Positions 15,001-21,000 of a DNA stretch of 64,000 bases are shown here, piece by piece. How positions within the stretch are numbered: the first letter of the stretch is position 1; the number at the start of each line of letters is the position of its first letter. The position numbers were made by a program. Source of the stretch: a virus (taxonomy: Duplodnaviria > Heunggongvirae > Uroviricota > Caudoviricetes). The stretch lies in IMG/VR virus record IMGVR_UViG_2721755646_000010. The stretch is one strand, 5' to 3'.

Positions 15001-18000
15001 CAGTTTAACCTGACTGCCGCTGCGGCCCCGGAAAATGAAAACATGGCCGGACATGGGATCGTCTTTCAGCGCCGTTTGTACTTTCGCAGCCAGGCCGTTG
15101 AAGCCATTTCTCATATCGGTGATACCGGCAACCAGCCAAATTTTGGTCCCGGAAGGTAACGGGATCATCGCTTCAGTTCCTGTATCAGCAGAGTCAGGAG
15201 CTTTTCGCTGACATTGCCATTGAAGCGGAGCGTCCCGTGCCGGAACGTTACCTCACAGCTGATACTGAGGGTTTCCGGGTCCTCTGCGAGCGATTCTGGC
15301 TGTTCGGCAGCTGCATCGAGAGTCACAGGAAGTAGCTGGGGGCTCTCTGAAGAAGGTAATAGCAGCTTTCCCTCGCGCCATTGTTGTCGCCATTTGAACA
15401 ACAGATTGGCGTTAATGCCATTTTCAAGAGCAAGTTTTGAGATGGATATCCCGGGTTCACAGGAGGCAGCAACGAGCTGCTGTTTAAATTCGGGAGGATA
15501 ATTAGGGCAGCCTTTTCGCCTGCCGGGAGTCACATTTTTCTGCATATCTGATACTTTGGTTCCCACTACTTATTTGGTGGACACCACTTTGTCTAATTCG
15601 TCAGATTCTGACCAGACGGTTCAGGCTGTACGCTTACCTGATGTCTCACCGGCGCTGGTATCGAAGGTCACCGATGCCGTTATGGAGCAGGTAGTCGAAT
15701 GGCAAAACCGGCCACTGGATGCGGTCTATCCCATTGTTTATCTTGACTGTATTGTCCTGAAGGTTCGGCAGGACAGTCGCGTAATCAATAAATCCGTATT
15801 CCTCGCACTGGGTATCAATATCGAAGGCCAGAAAGAGTTACTGGGTATGTGGCTGGCCGAAAACGAGGGAGCGAAGTTCTGGCTCAATGTGCTGACTGAA
15901 CTAAAAAACCGCGGCCTGAACGATATTCTCATAGCCTGTGTCGACGGGCTGAAAGGCTTCCCGGACGCTATCAACACGGTGTATCCGGAAGCCCGCATCC
16001 AGCTGTGCATCGTGCATATGGTGCGCAACAGCCTGCGGTTCGTTTCCTGGAAGGACTACAAAGCCGTCACCCGCGACCTGAAAGCCATCTACCAGGCCCC
16101 CACAGAAGAAGCAGGCCAGCAGGCGCTGGAAGCGTTCGCCAGCGCCTGGGACAGTCGCTACCCGCAGATAAGCCGGAGCTGGCAGGCAAACTGGACCAAC
16201 CTGGCGATGTTCTTCGCTTACCCGGCAGATATCCGCAAAGTCATCTACACAACCAACGCCATCGAGTCGCTGAACAGCGTAATCCGGCATGCCATCAAAA
16301 AACGCAAGGTGTTCCCGACGGATGACTCAGTGAAAAAGGTCGTGTGGCTGGCAATCCAGGCGGCTTCACAGAAATGGACGATGCCACTGCGGGACTGGCG
16401 TATGGCAATGAGCCGCTTTATTATCGAGTTCGGTGACCGCCTGGACGGTCACTTCTGAGAAAAGGCATTTACACAGAATCGTGTACAGGGTCGATTTTAC
16501 TCGTTAATTAGCGAACAAACCACTCGTCAGCAGACTCCCAGGTATCTTTCAGCGTCTCCTGAACAAAAGTTTTTGCAGAATCTTTATCGGCGGTGCGAGT
16601 AACTGAAAGGCCATCGTTGCTGGTGGATTTGATGATCACTTCTACATCGTCATAACGTTTACTGACACGTCGCAGCATTTCTTGTTGCAGGGCAGGAACA
16701 GAACCTTTTGGCATTTTGTTGATTTTGGCTGCGGGGTATCTGTGGGGCATATATGGGACATAAAAAGGCCTCAAATAAACAGCAAAATCGAGATTAGGGA
16801 TTTTTAGAAAAAATACAACCATCTGAAAAAACTTAGAAAACACCCAAAAACCCACAGAATAGTAAAAAACATCTATGAATTATGGATTTCAAGAGTCATT
16901 CAATCTAACTAATTGATAAATAAAAAATTAACTTTTCATCGCTTCGTTATGGGGCATGGTTGGGGCAAACTCGCTTAACTGTGTATTTAACAGCGTTACC
17001 TGCGCATTATTATTTTCTGACATCCATTTCCCGTACACCTGAAACACCATTTGCGCATCTGCATGGCCCATCTGGTTTGCAATGAATGCCGGGTTAGCTC
17101 CTGCTGTTAACGACCAGCAGGCATAAGTGTGTCTCGACTGATACGATTTGCGATGGCGGATTCCGGCACGCTTTACCGCTGCGTCCCACATCTGCCTTAT
17201 TGAGTCAACGGTAAAATGGTCGCCATAATTTTTTACTTTCGCTGACACTTCAGGTTGAAAAACAAAGGTACATTTTTGTTTCTCTGTTCTGCCGAATTCT
17301 CTGAGGTGAACATCGATGATATGCTCTTTGCTCAGTCTCGTTAGTGCCATCTGACTCCGGAGAGCGTCGATTGCGGGCTTAATAAGGTGAATCACACGAT
17401 TGGTTCCCGCCTGTGTTTTTGGTACTGTAAAACGGTCTTTTGCCAGATTTCTTCTGATTATCATTCTGCCATTGCGCAAGATGGTTGCGGTTTTTCTTCA
17501 TCATTTTCTTCTTCTGTTTCCTGCTTAGCAGACAGTTCGCGGTTAACTTCTTCCAGGATATCTTTTTCCGGTGTATGTCGTGCAGCAGTGAGAGTTTCCT
17601 TGCTGGGGTTCTCGTGATCAGTCTCCGTTAAGTAGGCGTTGATATACCCCTGAAGGCGTCCCGGGTAGTGATAAAACTCAGGGTGAGCGCTCCGGATAAG
17701 TGCAAAAATAGCGGCGCGGGAATAGTCCAGAATACCCGGGGTTGCGCGAAGTGCTGCGGACCATTCTTTGAACGGACTTTCTCTTTTCAGGACGATTTCT
17801 TTTGCGCGACGATAAACGCTGCCCGGAATTTCATAAATATTAAAATCCATCGGAAGTGTGGCTGCTGCAATCTCCACATCCAGCGTATCGAAGGTGTGTA
17901 CTAAATTCGGATTGCGATCGGTTTTGTTCCCGCCACCGGCATTTGCACCGGAAGCCGTACGGGTGATACGCGAAACACGATTTCCTTTCATCCACTCTTT

Positions 18001-21000
18001 TGTCAGCAGACCCCGATCAGTGTAGTCAGCGTCCAGGTATGCCTCGAAAAAAGCAGTTATCAGTCCCAGGTCTGAATTACCGGGATTAGGGAAAACTTTG
18101 TCAGTGTCGCGTACCAGTTTGTGAAGGTCGCGAATCTCCAGCGGGTCGAGCAGCTTTGTTTTGTGAGAAATGGCCAGGGCAGTAACAGCCGGCAGTTCTT
18201 CCGCCCGTGCTATATGTAATGCCTGAAGTTCTTCCCGTGCAACGTGCGTTACTGGTTTTTCGCTGCCGTGTTGCGCAAGCCAGCGAATGGGCAGCTCCTG
18301 ACCAGAAACCGGCAGGAGCATATTCTCCTCAATCTCCGTCATGTCTTCGCCGTTGACGTTGGTATTGTCAGTACTGGCTGGTTTCTCCTGCACGGAGGGA
18401 GAGGGCGCGATAAATACCATTGTAATGCCATCTTCCCCGCCTTTTTCGTATCGGTTGCAGAATTCGGTATCAAACACGCCTTCAGGTGGAAGGTCATTCA
18501 CAACGGGTAAATGGACGCGAACGGGTTTTTTAAAGTCGTCTTCATCATAATCGTTGTCATCCATTGCGGTAATGCAGCGGGAGATGGCAACAGATAATTT
18601 TTTTGCTGTAGTCCAGTAAAAACCACCTTTAATTCCCAGACGTTTTCTGACTTTGTCATTTTTTGCTTCGCAATATAGCGCAAATTCTTCTTTATCAGTG
18701 CTCATTGATAAACCTCATTACAGATTTAAGGGTGAACAAATCCCTGCCATTGCTGGCATTTTTAATCCGTTGGTATGGTGTTAATATGGCTGGAGGGTTA
18801 TCCAGCCGGTGTTTCGTTATTCAGGTACAGCGATACTTTTTTTACCGGGAGGCATTCACCAGAAATTTTTTGCTCGTCTCTTGCCTGGAGGCAGGATTCT
18901 TTACTGGCATAAATTCCGGTAATCACATTCTGTGATTCACCCGTTATAAGAAAAACCGTCATCATCAGTGCAAATGCTGAAGTCATTGACGTTCTCCGAA
19001 AATACCAAGTTCAAGAAGAGCAATTCGGGAAAGTATGGAATTATCATTGAGCAGATAAGGCTCATATTTCCTCATGTTAATGGCATCTTCAGTAAACTCC
19101 CGGTTACTGAGCAGAACACCAATATCAAAACAACCTTCAGACGTATTAACGTTTGGTAATAACGTTTCCATTATCGCGTCCTCAACAATGAATTTTGTGA
19201 TGCAGTGCCTGGTGCCTCCAGGTGACGTTAACCAGTTAACAATTAACGCCGGATACAGAGAATCCACCCATAACACTGTTTTTGGTTTTAACTGTTCCGC
19301 GTGCGCTTAGCCGCATTCACCGCATCACAAAATTCACTTTAAAAAGGGCGGCAGAGCAGCCACGGAGTAAAACTGATACCGCCAAACGTCACCAGAAAAT
19401 TGATAACAGAGGGCGTTGCAGCGGGGTTGTCACTTAAGCGTATGGTCAACCTGACAACCCGGTGTCCTCAATGGGGAAGGAATAACCCCGCCATACTTAC
19501 CGCCGCGCCATTTCGCGGAGTGCCACAACCGGAAGCGCACGTTCGAAGAAATCTAACGACAAGCCTTCTAAGGGAAAGAGCTTCGCCGTACGCTTTCGCG
19601 TTATGCACTGACTTTTCAGGGAAATATCCTTTCAGTAAACTGTCAGTACCGGATTCTTATCCGTGTCCGGCGCACGACCACACGTGACAGCGTGTTGGTC
19701 TCCATTTTTAACCCAGAACCTCAATGGAGGATAAAATGCCAAACAAAAAAAGAAATCCGCTTATTGAAAAACAGATTGAATGCCTGGTAAATCAACTCAG
19801 GCAATCAGGGTTATTAAAAACTCATTCAGAGTTGAGGCTCACAGAATCAGCATTCGACGATAAATTAAATAATGTCCTTTATAATGGCATTATTGATTTT
19901 AATCGTTCTGTTGGTCGCCGCGGCCCTGCTGGTGTTTCCTTATAATTACCAGTCAATCCAGAGTGGACCGTGTTCAGCGTAAATATAACTGTACACATCC
20001 AGATTATATTTGTGGTCTGTTAAGAACAGGCCGCAAATACATGCCGAAGCTTCCAGTGCAGCGGCTCTGTTACTGAATAACCATGTAGCAACATTCCAGC
20101 GTTTTTCTGCATCCCAGTCTTTCTCAAGGCCTGATACCATGAAGAAACCGTTAGTGTTGCCATCAAATAATTCTGTTTCCAAATTTTTAAGCAATGCCTG
20201 ATGGACTCTTGCCAGGTATTCCGCCGGAATTTCGCCACGAATTCTGATGAGATTGTCATAAACAAACATGTTCCCCGCATATGGCGATTTTTCTTTCTTG
20301 TTTTTTAAACCAGCATCATGAGCAAACTGATCAATTTCTTCTTCCGTTGGTTTCGTATTGATGTTTTGCGCTGTCGTTTCTGCAATTTTATTTGCCACAC
20401 TCTCTGAGTCGTGTTTATTTATAGACGCACAGAAATACAATCCGGTAAACGCATCGCGCACATTACGAGCCATATTATCAGTGTCTTTTTTCGTTACCGA
20501 TTCCAATTCAAGTTCGTTCAGACGATGACGAAGTGTGTGTGCTGCAATCTCCTGGATTGAAGGAGGTAAATCTTTAAATTCCATCGTCAACCTCATCAGT
20601 CAGTGTTTCTGGCTAACCAGCGACGCGCGCCAGCTTCAGTTTTAAACGTTTTGCTTTTGGTATACGTCATCGCGGTGAACGTACCGTCCTGGTTGGGGAA
20701 CACGCCACATACCAGAGATTCGTTGTTGCCAAGATTGAGCGTATCCATGTTGACCTCATTTCCCCTTAACGCCGGGGTAGCGGAACAAAAACCTGCTGCA
20801 TAGTTATTAAAGTTGAACCCTGCCGTCATGTTCTTACGCCTCGGGCTGGCTACTTAACCCCTGACCACTGCCTGGTAACTCGAAGTATTGCCCTGCATTC
20901 TGTGGGGCGGGGTGAGGGAATGAATGAAGTTTAGAAAAACGAACATTTAAGGTCAATGTTTTTTTATCAAAACATTTTAAGCAGGCAGCTGTTACGCCAT

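Follow-up and report, generated by a model that had tools for sequence, protein, structure and literature searches.

A probable deletion scar with remnants of the integrase and exonuclease genes at the int end of prophage Sp11 of Escherichia coli O157:H7

The locus and its genes

We have analysed a stretch of viral DNA of 64,000 nucleotides, which we will call the window. At one end of a prophage in it, prophage B, there are two overlapping open reading frames on the minus strand, one of 183 aa (16928..17479) and one of 414 aa (17461..18705). The features of the locus and of the far end of the prophage are the following:

16876..16893, no strand: att core TGAATTATGGATTTCAAG, int end of prophage B (Sp11)
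16931..17465, minus strand: integrase remnant, consisting of codons 254-431 and one further nucleotide from the gene for a Qin-type (IntQ-like) tyrosine integrase of 431 aa; corresponds to ECs_2217
17461..17464, minus strand: ATGA overlap, apparently made by the deletion; the TGA 17463..17461 which ends the 414-aa frame overlaps the ATG 17464..17462 (int M254)
17461..17473, no strand: putative deletion junction, breakpoint 17465/17466, from a three-way alignment of the window with the int and exo sides of an intact relative (L002, see below)
17466..18705, minus strand: truncated exonuclease gene, in which 413 codons and one nucleotide remain of the gene for an 820-aa RecE-family/Exo VIII-type prophage exonuclease; corresponds to ECs_2216
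17498..17500, minus strand: in-frame TGA which closes the integrase frame upstream, found by reading the sequence and translating the frame; it lies in exonuclease-derived DNA
18798-18986, minus strand: DUF1482/ydfD homologue (Pfam DUF1482, PGAP)
18983-19171, minus strand: dicB (Pfam DicB, PGAP)
19346-19397, minus strand: DicF sRNA (Rfam DicF, 75 bits)
62747..62764, no strand: second copy of the att core with one mismatch, at the far end of prophage B, adjoining the truncated ydfJ

DicF, dicB and the ydfD homologue (18798..19397) precede the truncated exonuclease in one leftward early operon, of the dicBF type, in which it is the last intact-looking frame.

Positions 16607-22478 of the window are 99.98% identical to strain Sakai, and O157:H7 genomes are 100% identical to the window across the 3-kb region 16400-19400. 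The locus can be assigned to Sp11, a defective lambdoid prophage of E. coli O157:H7, and forms its int end, so that prophage B is Sp11. In Sakai the same sequence is found at the same locus, with frames of 1245 and 537 bp which overlap by 4 nt and with the boundary between Sp11 and Sp12 at the same position. Both frames are pseudogenes there, ECs_2216 for the exonuclease and ECs_2217 for the integrase, and lie where the 'prophage Sp11' feature ends. PGAP marks both window frames as incomplete and annotates the integrase remnant as a pseudogene. Sakai differs in having the neighbouring dinI-like gene interrupted by IS629/IS1203, an insertion which the window strain does not have. The decay of Sp11 is already known: it has been annotated and also tested experimentally. 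An earlier sequence-only reading of this DNA was right in what it observed and partly right in how it interpreted it.

An intact relative is found in E. coli OkiPb01688 (NZ_AP042535.1), in a region which we call L002, with the order rspB / int (431 aa) / xis / exo (820 aa) / ydfD / dicB. It has a single Qin-type prophage directly adjoining rspB, with the same downstream genes (DUF1482, dicB and others). The flanks of the scar are 99.5-99.8% identical, but this genome keeps 2,321 bp which are missing in the window. Its integrase (WP_001206148.1) has the Pfam domains Arm-DNA-bind_2 (9-71), SAM-like (85-190) and catalytic (206-397), its Xis (WP_000005551.1, 83 aa) matches DUF1233, and its exonuclease (WP_069905538.1) has the domains Exonuc_VIII (57-189) and Rv2179c-like (639-810).

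The integrase remnant

The integrase-derived part of the 183-aa frame is only 16931-17465, which corresponds to 178 codons, followed by a stop codon at 16928-16930. The first five codons of the frame, beginning with the TTG start at 17479, belong to exonuclease-derived DNA or straddle the junction, and what is left of int has no native start codon. Seven codons above the TTG the frame is closed by the TGA at 17498-17500 ('tca' in the plus strand), just where it had been located before. The match of the frame to the Pfam family Phage_integrase (PF00589, E 5.4e-9) is confined to positions 52-165 of the 172 in the profile, and the sequence-only reading was correct in calling it a C-terminal remnant.

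All 178 residues which have been kept are identical to residues 254-431 of the intact integrase. Among them are the catalytic residues K269, R364, H387 and Y397; the first position of box II is Y361 instead of His, as it is in the intact integrase. The first catalytic arginine was placed at R235 of the intact relative (TGIRPGEL, 232-239) by alignment to the Tn1549 integrase (6EMY), which has TGLRISEL. The first retained residue of the remnant, M254, is downstream of R235, and the arginine of box I (TGxRxxEL) is absent. The remnant had been said to hold the catalytic C-terminal half, but it does not keep the whole of it. The arm-binding and core-binding domains, both wholly inside the deleted segment, are also absent. 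We conclude that the gene is a C-terminal remnant, predicted to be non-functional.

A complete integrase might have been split by a frameshift or a point nonsense mutation, with its N-terminal half in another frame or inside the 414-aa frame. The earlier reading had proposed a profile search of all three frames, which we have carried out for the minus strand of 16900-18750 with Pfam, masking stops and accepting E up to 1. Only the Phage_integrase and Exonuc_VIII families appear; no arm-binding domain, SAM-like domain or first third of the catalytic domain is found in any of these frames, which argues against a split gene. The one observation in its favour came from a tblastn search of the whole window with the intact Int, Xis and Exo, in which Int residues 215-253 extend into 17466-17623, where 'YTG.R' resembles box I. 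However this extension is spurious: it has five stop codons and 14 gap positions, and its DNA matches, with 99.8% identity, an internal part of the exonuclease gene in a genome which has a separate intact int of its own. It was rejected as exonuclease-derived DNA. There is no true box I in any frame, the 414-aa one included, and no frameshift correction restores the integrase. A split integrase has practically no chance of being the explanation.

The truncated exonuclease

The 414-aa protein is acidic (pI 5.06; 71 D+E against 50 K+R) and has no integrase features, as had been noted. It had also been described as unknown, and here we differ: the adjacent gene is that of a prophage exonuclease, and the protein is its N-terminal half. 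Its sole Pfam match is Exonuc_VIII (1.6e-34). It aligns with positions 1-409 of 877 in the NCBIfam exodeoxyribonuclease VIII model PRK09709 (E 9.3e-186) with 619.6 bits, below the equivalog cut-off of 1269 bits. It is equal to residues 1-414 of the intact 820-aa protein, save for one substitution and one missing Glu. A large protein search gave only E. coli 'exonuclease / RecE family' entries; among the matches listed all are longer than the query and most are labelled partial, with no sign of a natural stand-alone form of 414 aa. The gene is the positional counterpart of ydfE in K-12.

The part which is missing includes the C-terminal Rv2179c-like 3'-5' exonuclease domain (intact residues 639-810). 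RecE (exodeoxyribonuclease VIII) of the Rac prophage is homologous to the window protein over about 410 N-terminal residues (PRK09709, Exonuc_VIII). The intact 820-aa parent differs from RecE by its Rv2179c-like/DEDD-type 3'-5' exonuclease domain at the C-terminal end; it has no Pfam match to a RecE-type C-terminal region, and no recT-like gene follows exo in OkiPb01688. The window protein in turn differs from RecE by having no nuclease domain at all.

The putative deletion junction

The alignment by blastn with L002 gives two matches. On the int side window 16876-17473 corresponds to L002 6001-6599 (99.5% identity), on the exo side window 17465-19400 corresponds to L002 8912-10850 (99.8%), and there is nothing between both matches. 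T17465 is common to both parents, within an imperfect microhomology at 17465-17473, in which 7/9 positions agree in both. The 2,321 bp missing (L002 6592-8912) comprise int codons 1-253, with the arm-binding and core-binding regions and the catalytic Arg235, the whole of xis, exo codons 415-820 and two intergenic spacers. The integrase remnant and its 414-aa neighbour had been treated as separate facts, while they appear to mark both sides of a single deletion, in which xis was lost as well.

The ancestral order in the minus strand would have been dicF-dicB-ydfD-exo(820 aa)-xis-int(431 aa)-att. A single deletion of 2,321 bp by illegitimate recombination between two short, imperfectly matching sequences would have fused nucleotide 1240 of exo to nucleotide 759 of int. 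The exo frame would then enter int DNA for two nucleotides and reach a TGA, leaving an open frame of 414 aa; this TGA is indeed placed in integrase-derived DNA. Both att cores would survive with no Int or Xis to recombine them, and Sp11 would be fixed ('grounded') in the chromosome. We consider it very probable that the region is the scar of one such deletion, which took xis, cut both flanking genes and grounded the prophage. A single event is the most parsimonious reading, with L002 being a close relative and not the true ancestor. We infer the mechanism from a weak microhomology, either 7/9 positions or a match of about 13 nt which needs one indel.

Nothing that contradicts an explanation by a single deletion was found in the analysis.

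Related prophages and distribution of the junction

The cryptic prophage Qin of K-12 is integrated in ydfJ beside rspB and has the order ydfD-ydfE(exo')-insD'-intQ'. It shares with Sp11 the attachment locus (truncated ydfJ, rspB side) and the order dicF-dicB-ydfD-exo-int (PMC6379469). The 3' half of int has 91% DNA identity in the window and in Qin. In both prophages the exonuclease has lost its C-terminus and the integrase its N-terminus. However the remnants of Qin are split by an IS2 fragment, whereas those of Sp11 abut directly, apparently after a clean deletion of 2,321 bp; intQ' has 1164 bp, compared with 535 nt in the Sp11 remnant.

Sp12, the tandem neighbour of Sp11, lies outside the window. 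It has the same integrase type and att site and has also been inactivated, by a deletion in int and a disruption of exo. A deletion of 2,955 bp took the 3' end of int together with the host genes rspB and rspA, and exo is split by IS1203. Sp12 keeps the complementary half, int nucleotides 1-689 (frameshifted), and xis. We considered that the int halves of Sp11 and Sp12 might come from a single rearrangement, or might recombine to restore int. Both ideas were rejected: the junction partners are different (exo in one case, the rspA-ynfA spacer in the other), and nucleotides 1-689 and 759-1296 do not overlap.

The junction is found in 224 of the 5,426 complete E. coli genomes, in 222 of them with a match of at least 99%, and has a single form in all 224. 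Among the matches listed, every genome with 100% identity whose name states a serotype is O157:H7. Where the junction is absent, genomes match on the int side only, and some have an intact integrase gene there. O157:H7 genomes usually have one single place which resembles the 3' half of int.

The scar might also have arisen in at least two steps, for example by insertion of an IS between exo and int, after which the IS would have caused deletions on its flanks and then been lost. Qin would represent a half-way state at the same locus (intQ', IS2 fragment, exo'), the exo of Sp12 has IS1203 inside and IS elements are abundant nearby. However the junction has no IS-derived or filler nucleotides, the parents abut with a shared T and the imperfect microhomology, and the form is the same in every one of the 224 carrier genomes. 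We find a history in several steps unlikely.

Attachment sites and excision

The att core has a length of 18 bp, with matching copies at both ends of prophage B. The core at 16876..16893 is the overlap between the int-side homology of L002, which starts at 16876, and the DinI-arm repeat, which ends at 16893. This repeat is direct and has 401 bp: 16493-16893 is found again at 62364-62764 with 99.75% identity. The site at 16876..16893 is an attP-like hybrid, since on its left it is bordered by the DinI arm of Sp12, the tandem prophage upstream. At the far end, ydfJ lacks its N-terminus both in TW14359 and in Sakai.

With the 83-aa Xis as query, tblastn found no match in the window at E<=0.01, and there is no second copy of the same int in the window. 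Prophage B does lack an intact cognate integrase there, as had been stated, and is predicted to be unable to recombine its surviving att cores because Int and Xis are missing. The sequence points to a loss of excision, which the earlier reading had expressed as a prophage locked in place and which agrees with published data on Sakai. Sp11 was scored there with Int defective (D), Xis absent (-) and a defective recombination function, and predicted to be non-excising (PMC2669165, Table 1; Asadulghani et al. 2009). When all Sps of Sakai were studied by attP PCR, nine prophages were positive and Sp11 was not among them (PMC2669165). Its circularization, replication and packaging are negative in Table 2 of the same paper. 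A circular form of Sp11 was detected neither with mitomycin C nor without it, the strain tested being Sakai and not the window strain (PMC2669165).

Another integrase or excisionase of the genome might still act in trans on the intact att sites and keep the prophage mobile. Besides both cores, the intact xis of the same type in Sp12 speaks for it, as does the fact that prophages of O157 Sakai are documented to complement one another in other functions (PMC2669165). Against it, Sp12 has only the frameshifted nucleotides 1-689 of int and, since this remnant and that of Sp11 do not overlap, R235 is missing from both. The single int 3'-half-like place usual in O157:H7 genomes and the negative PCR in Sakai also make a mobile prophage very unlikely. 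Rare excision in trans, below the detection limit of PCR, is possible.

Possible function of the remnants

The remnants might have been retained as functional, the exonuclease fragment as an independent protein of 414 aa and the Int fragment of 178 aa expressed by stop-start coupling at the ATGA. The 414-aa frame is open and ends the dicF-dicB-ydfD operon, the apparent deletion would have created the overlap with Int M254, and Qin likewise keeps an N-terminal exonuclease fragment. For the counterpart operon of K-12 a polycistronic transcript which includes ydfE has been described, but no transcript reaching ydfE was detected (PMC10448788). Against a function, conservation is explained by clonal descent, given the approximately 100% identity among O157:H7 genomes. 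The exonuclease fragment has lost its only recognisable catalytic domain, the Int fragment has neither Arg I nor the beginning of the catalytic fold, and both annotations (PGAP, Sakai) treat the genes as pseudogenes. We consider retention for a function very unlikely.

Also very unlikely is a specific version, a two-gene module made by chance and used by the cell: a protein of 414 aa with the Exo VIII region, as last gene of the dicBF-type operon, and the ATGA-coupled Int fragment of 178 aa. If it were true, the Int fragment might block the related Qin-type integrases of incoming phages and stabilise the tandem of Sp11 and Sp12, which carries effectors.

Significance

Taken alone the scar has little significance. 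It is ordinary decay, the textbook 'grounding' of a prophage which becomes fixed by the loss of int and xis; Sp11 carries type III effector genes of the nleG family. Our analysis adds a resolution at the base level to a defect which Asadulghani et al. 2009 and the annotation of Sakai had already recorded, and it joins an 'unknown' gene and an integrase remnant in one event. The comparison of Sp11, Sp12 and the Qin prophage of K-12 shows that the exo-xis-int segment has apparently been destroyed three times independently at one chromosomal site. This threefold loss fits the view that there is selection or a mutational bias against the excision modules of resident prophages.

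The integrase remnant and its neighbour

The locus is already known: it carries two annotated pseudogenes and was a subject of discussion in 2009. In the Sakai reference they are ECs_2216 ('exonuclease', 1245 bp) and ECs_2217 ('integrase', 537 bp), which overlap by 4 nt and lie where the feature 'prophage Sp11, lambda-like phage' ends; Sp12 starts 38 bp beyond. TW14359 is 100% identical over 16400-22500, and there PGAP names a 'RecE family exodeoxyribonuclease, incomplete, missing C-terminus' followed by a 'tyrosine-type recombinase/integrase, incomplete, missing N-terminus'. 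In the window we have read two ORFs:

16928..17479, minus strand, 183-aa ORF, integrase remnant
17461..18705, minus strand, 414-aa ORF

The sequence-only reading took the first for a catalytic C-terminal piece whose frame is closed by a stop, and both points hold. The match to the Pfam phage-integrase catalytic domain is confined to profile positions 52-165 of 172 (E 5.4e-9), and the integrase frame reads TGA (plus strand 'tca', 17498-17500) seven codons above the TTG of the ORF. DNA derived from the integrase gene (int) covers 16931-17465, codons 254-431; the TTG at which the ORF starts, and the four codons after it, are in exonuclease-derived DNA or across the junction. In the intact 431-aa integrase, residues 9-71 form an arm-DNA-binding domain, 85-190 a SAM-like core-binding region and 206-397 the catalytic domain. 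Its catalytic residues, from alignment to the solved Tn1549 integrase (6EMY), are R235 (TGIRPGEL, box I), K269, Y361/R364 (box II), H387 and Y397. The first residue kept is M254, so the remnant has lost R235 and both DNA-binding domains. A tblastn search found no second copy of this int anywhere in the window, in line with the claim that it has no intact cognate integrase.

Nor could the gene be restored by reading other frames. Against Pfam, with E up to 1, the three minus-strand frames over 16900-18750 gave two partial domains only and no integrase domain beyond the known remnant. Correction of a frameshift recovers no full-length integrase, and no box I was found inside the 414-aa ORF. We have rejected as chance an upstream tblastn extension of the integrase match past the junction: it needs 14 gap positions, and the DNA under it is 99.8% identical to the exonuclease interior in a genome that carries a separate intact int. 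At 17570-17600 (minus strand, integrase frame) the out-of-frame exonuclease translation 'YTGKRYPG' resembles box I 'YTGIRPGE'. We judge this 'YTG.R' string a chance match; it suffices to pull the alignment over five stop codons, a trap for automated pseudogene reconstruction.

The 414-aa product had been described as an unknown acidic protein with no integrase features. It is acidic (pI 5.06; 71 acidic versus 50 basic residues) and its sole family match is Exonuc_VIII (PF06630, 1.6e-34), but it is not unknown: its alignments identify it as the N-terminal half of a prophage exonuclease. Residues 1-414 align to positions 1-409 of the 877-position NCBIfam exodeoxyribonuclease VIII (RecE) model (E 9.3e-186), with a score of 619.6 bits; this is about half of the equivalog cut-off of 1269, as would be expected from an N-terminal half. 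The protein differs from residues 1-414 of the intact 820-aa exonuclease in three places only: T196K, the loss of one Glu and the final residue. The frame keeps 413 codons of the exonuclease gene (exo), the 414th (GAA) is completed across the junction and the stop (TGA, 17463..17461) lies within int-derived DNA. A large protein collection has thousands of E. coli matches, named 'exonuclease' or 'RecE family exodeoxyribonuclease'; among the matches listed, all exceed the query in length. The intact exonuclease has an Exo VIII N-terminal region (57-189) and an Rv2179c-like 3'-5' exonuclease domain (639-810). This nuclease domain is absent from the truncated ORF.

The intact exonuclease is found in E. 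coli OkiPb01688 (L002 7693-10155) and is a chimera of a RecE N-terminal region and an Rv2179c-like DEDD 3'-5' exonuclease domain; the excisionase gene (xis) follows directly and there is no recT-like gene. In RecE of Rac the 5'-3' nuclease is in the C-terminal 260 residues or so, and the N-terminal part is dispensable for recombination. The family name fits the N-terminal region only; at its other end the intact parent has a DEDD-type domain, and no recT gene adjoins it. For this group of prophage proteins, labels such as 'RecE family' and 'general recombination function' may be misleading.

The deletion and its junction

Each half was run separately in megablast in order to locate where homology ends. 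Integrase homology of other genomes ends at 17473 and exonuclease homology begins at 17461-17465. OkiPb01688 has the undamaged order in the same context: rspB, integrase (431 aa), excisionase (83 aa, DUF1233 family), exonuclease (820 aa), DUF1482, dicB and more shared genes. By blastn, 16876-17473 corresponds to L002 6001-6599 (99.5%) and 17465-19400 to L002 8912-10850 (99.8%), with no window sequence between the two matches. A three-way alignment places the breakpoint at 17465/17466, with one T common to both sides and an imperfect microhomology over 17465-17473 (7 of 9 positions). One contiguous segment, L002 6592-8912 (2,321 bp), is absent when compared with this 99.5-99.8% identical intact relative, and its edges are inside exo and int.

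Parts of the intact segment missing from the window:
758 nt of int
19 nt, int-side spacer
252 nt, xis
72 nt, exo-side spacer
1,220 nt of exo

No xis was found anywhere in the window by tblastn. From this comparison the truncated exonuclease and the integrase remnant appear as the two edges of one deletion, which a single illegitimate recombination event at the short imperfect homology would have produced. The earlier view of a dead integrase and a grounded prophage stands; its unknown gene gives way to the other edge of the deletion.

Distribution of the scar and comparison with related prophages

A 140-bp junction probe covering 17396-17535 was searched in 5,426 complete E. coli genomes, with presence defined as at least 80% coverage. 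The junction is found in 224 of them, 222 at 99% identity or more. In genomes without it the probe matched on the int side only, and many of these matches are annotated 'site-specific integrase'; the integrase 3' half is present in 2,975 genomes. The scar is a marker common to 224 genomes; among the matches listed at 100% identity, those named with a serotype are O157:H7.

Sp12, the tandem neighbour, has the complementary half of an Sp11-type integrase (L004 41186-42220, TW14359 2159185-2160219, outside the window): int nucleotides 1-689, with 94% identity and one frameshift, beside an intact xis. Its int is fused to the ynfA-rspA spacer through a 2,955-bp deletion, with loss of host rspB and rspA, and its exonuclease gene is interrupted by IS1203. 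The closest analogue in another strain is Qin of K-12, with intQ' lacking its N-terminus and an exonuclease fragment lacking its C-terminus at the ydfE position; it differs by an IS2 fragment between the two. Its decay in W3110 (L008 3554-6184) is at the same chromosomal site and is independent. The exo-xis-int segment has been destroyed three times independently, in Sp11, Sp12 and K-12 Qin.

The deletion has also made an ATGA overlap (17461-17464, minus strand), in which the ATG of Int M254 shares bases with the stop of the 414-aa ORF. Such an overlap, here accidental, is of the translational-coupling type, so that coupled translation of a 178-aa Int fragment is possible in principle; the 414-aa fragment could be expressed from the early-left operon. 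That these fragments are functional seems to us extremely improbable: their conservation is clonal, the catalytic parts are missing from both and K-12 showed no transcript extending to ydfE. The present analysis gave no sign of function for either fragment.

Other features of the window

Upstream genes follow the order DicF (19346-19397), dicB and a DUF1482/ydfD homologue, that of the dicBF operon (PMC10448788). Rfam matches above the gathering score are:

5971-6037, minus strand, sar RNA
19346-19397, minus strand, DicF
26607-26781, plus strand, sok antitoxin, adjoining a hok-family gene
31075-31324, plus strand, two tRNAs
32097-32269, plus strand, STnc100 sRNA

At 21041-21679 (minus strand) a 212-aa ORF is open from its ATG. 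Its N-terminus is HTH_3-like (E 2.4e-4, just under the Pfam cut-off) and a Peptidase_S24 domain is also present (8e-13), so that the product resembles a full CI/LexA-type repressor. Only its last 112 codons (ECs_2209) are called by PGAP and in the Sakai annotation, and the Sp11 repressor has been described as disrupted, contrary to the open ORF (Asadulghani et al., PMC2669165).

The upstream prophage in the window represents the end of Sp12 and carries tail fibre genes, nleG7, a dinI-like gene and an IS256-family fragment that ISEc8 interrupts. At 13233-16458 an ISEc8 element (IS66 family; tnpA, tnpB and a 512-aa transposase) is inserted in an IS256-family (ISEic2) transposase gene, now in two fragments. 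Sakai has an additional IS629 in the dinI-like gene, which the window lacks. The Sp12 tail genes at the window start are 98.9% identical to the Sp11 copy of TW14359 versus 96.5% to its Sp12 copy, a pattern which suggests exchange between both prophages. TW14359 lacks region 35224-52024 of prophage B at the corresponding position, where its major capsid gene is cut short and joined to a ydfR fragment. The window strain therefore has a fuller Sp11 late region, like Sakai.

Excision of the prophage

Without Int and Xis, Sp11 would be unable to excise. This agrees with published work on strain Sakai (Asadulghani et al. 2009, PMC2669165), where Sp11 is scored 'D' for integration, '-' for excision and 'D' for general recombination (Table 1), and Sp3, Sp11 and Sp12 are predicted unable to excise. 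PCR of attP junctions, done for every Sp both with and without mitomycin C, gave a positive result for nine prophages; Sp11 was not among them, and it was also negative for circularization, replication and packaging (Table 2). The proposal of a prophage locked in place agrees with this negative PCR, and the excision PCR suggested as its check is thereby already on record for strain Sakai. Complementation in trans is unlikely, because Sp12 keeps xis but only the frameshifted nucleotides 1-689 of int, because the remnants of Sp11 and Sp12 (codons 254-431 versus 1-230) do not overlap and both lack R235, and because O157:H7 genomes usually resemble the int 3' half at one place only.

The att core is present at both ends of the prophage:

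16876-16893, TGAATTATGGATTTCAAG, where the int-side L002 homology overlaps the 401-bp DinI-arm repeat
62747-62764, second copy with one mismatch, adjoining the truncated ydfJ gene

The prophage thus has intact cis sites and lacks the trans factors only. In K-12 this locus, ydfJ ... rspB, is where Qin is attached (PMC6379469). The core is at the end of a 401-bp direct repeat (16493-16893 and 62364-62764, 99.75%) with identical dinI-like genes (WP_001120551.1). These repeats are the right arms of two tandem prophages, and they could also be a substrate for homologous deletion of all of prophage B.
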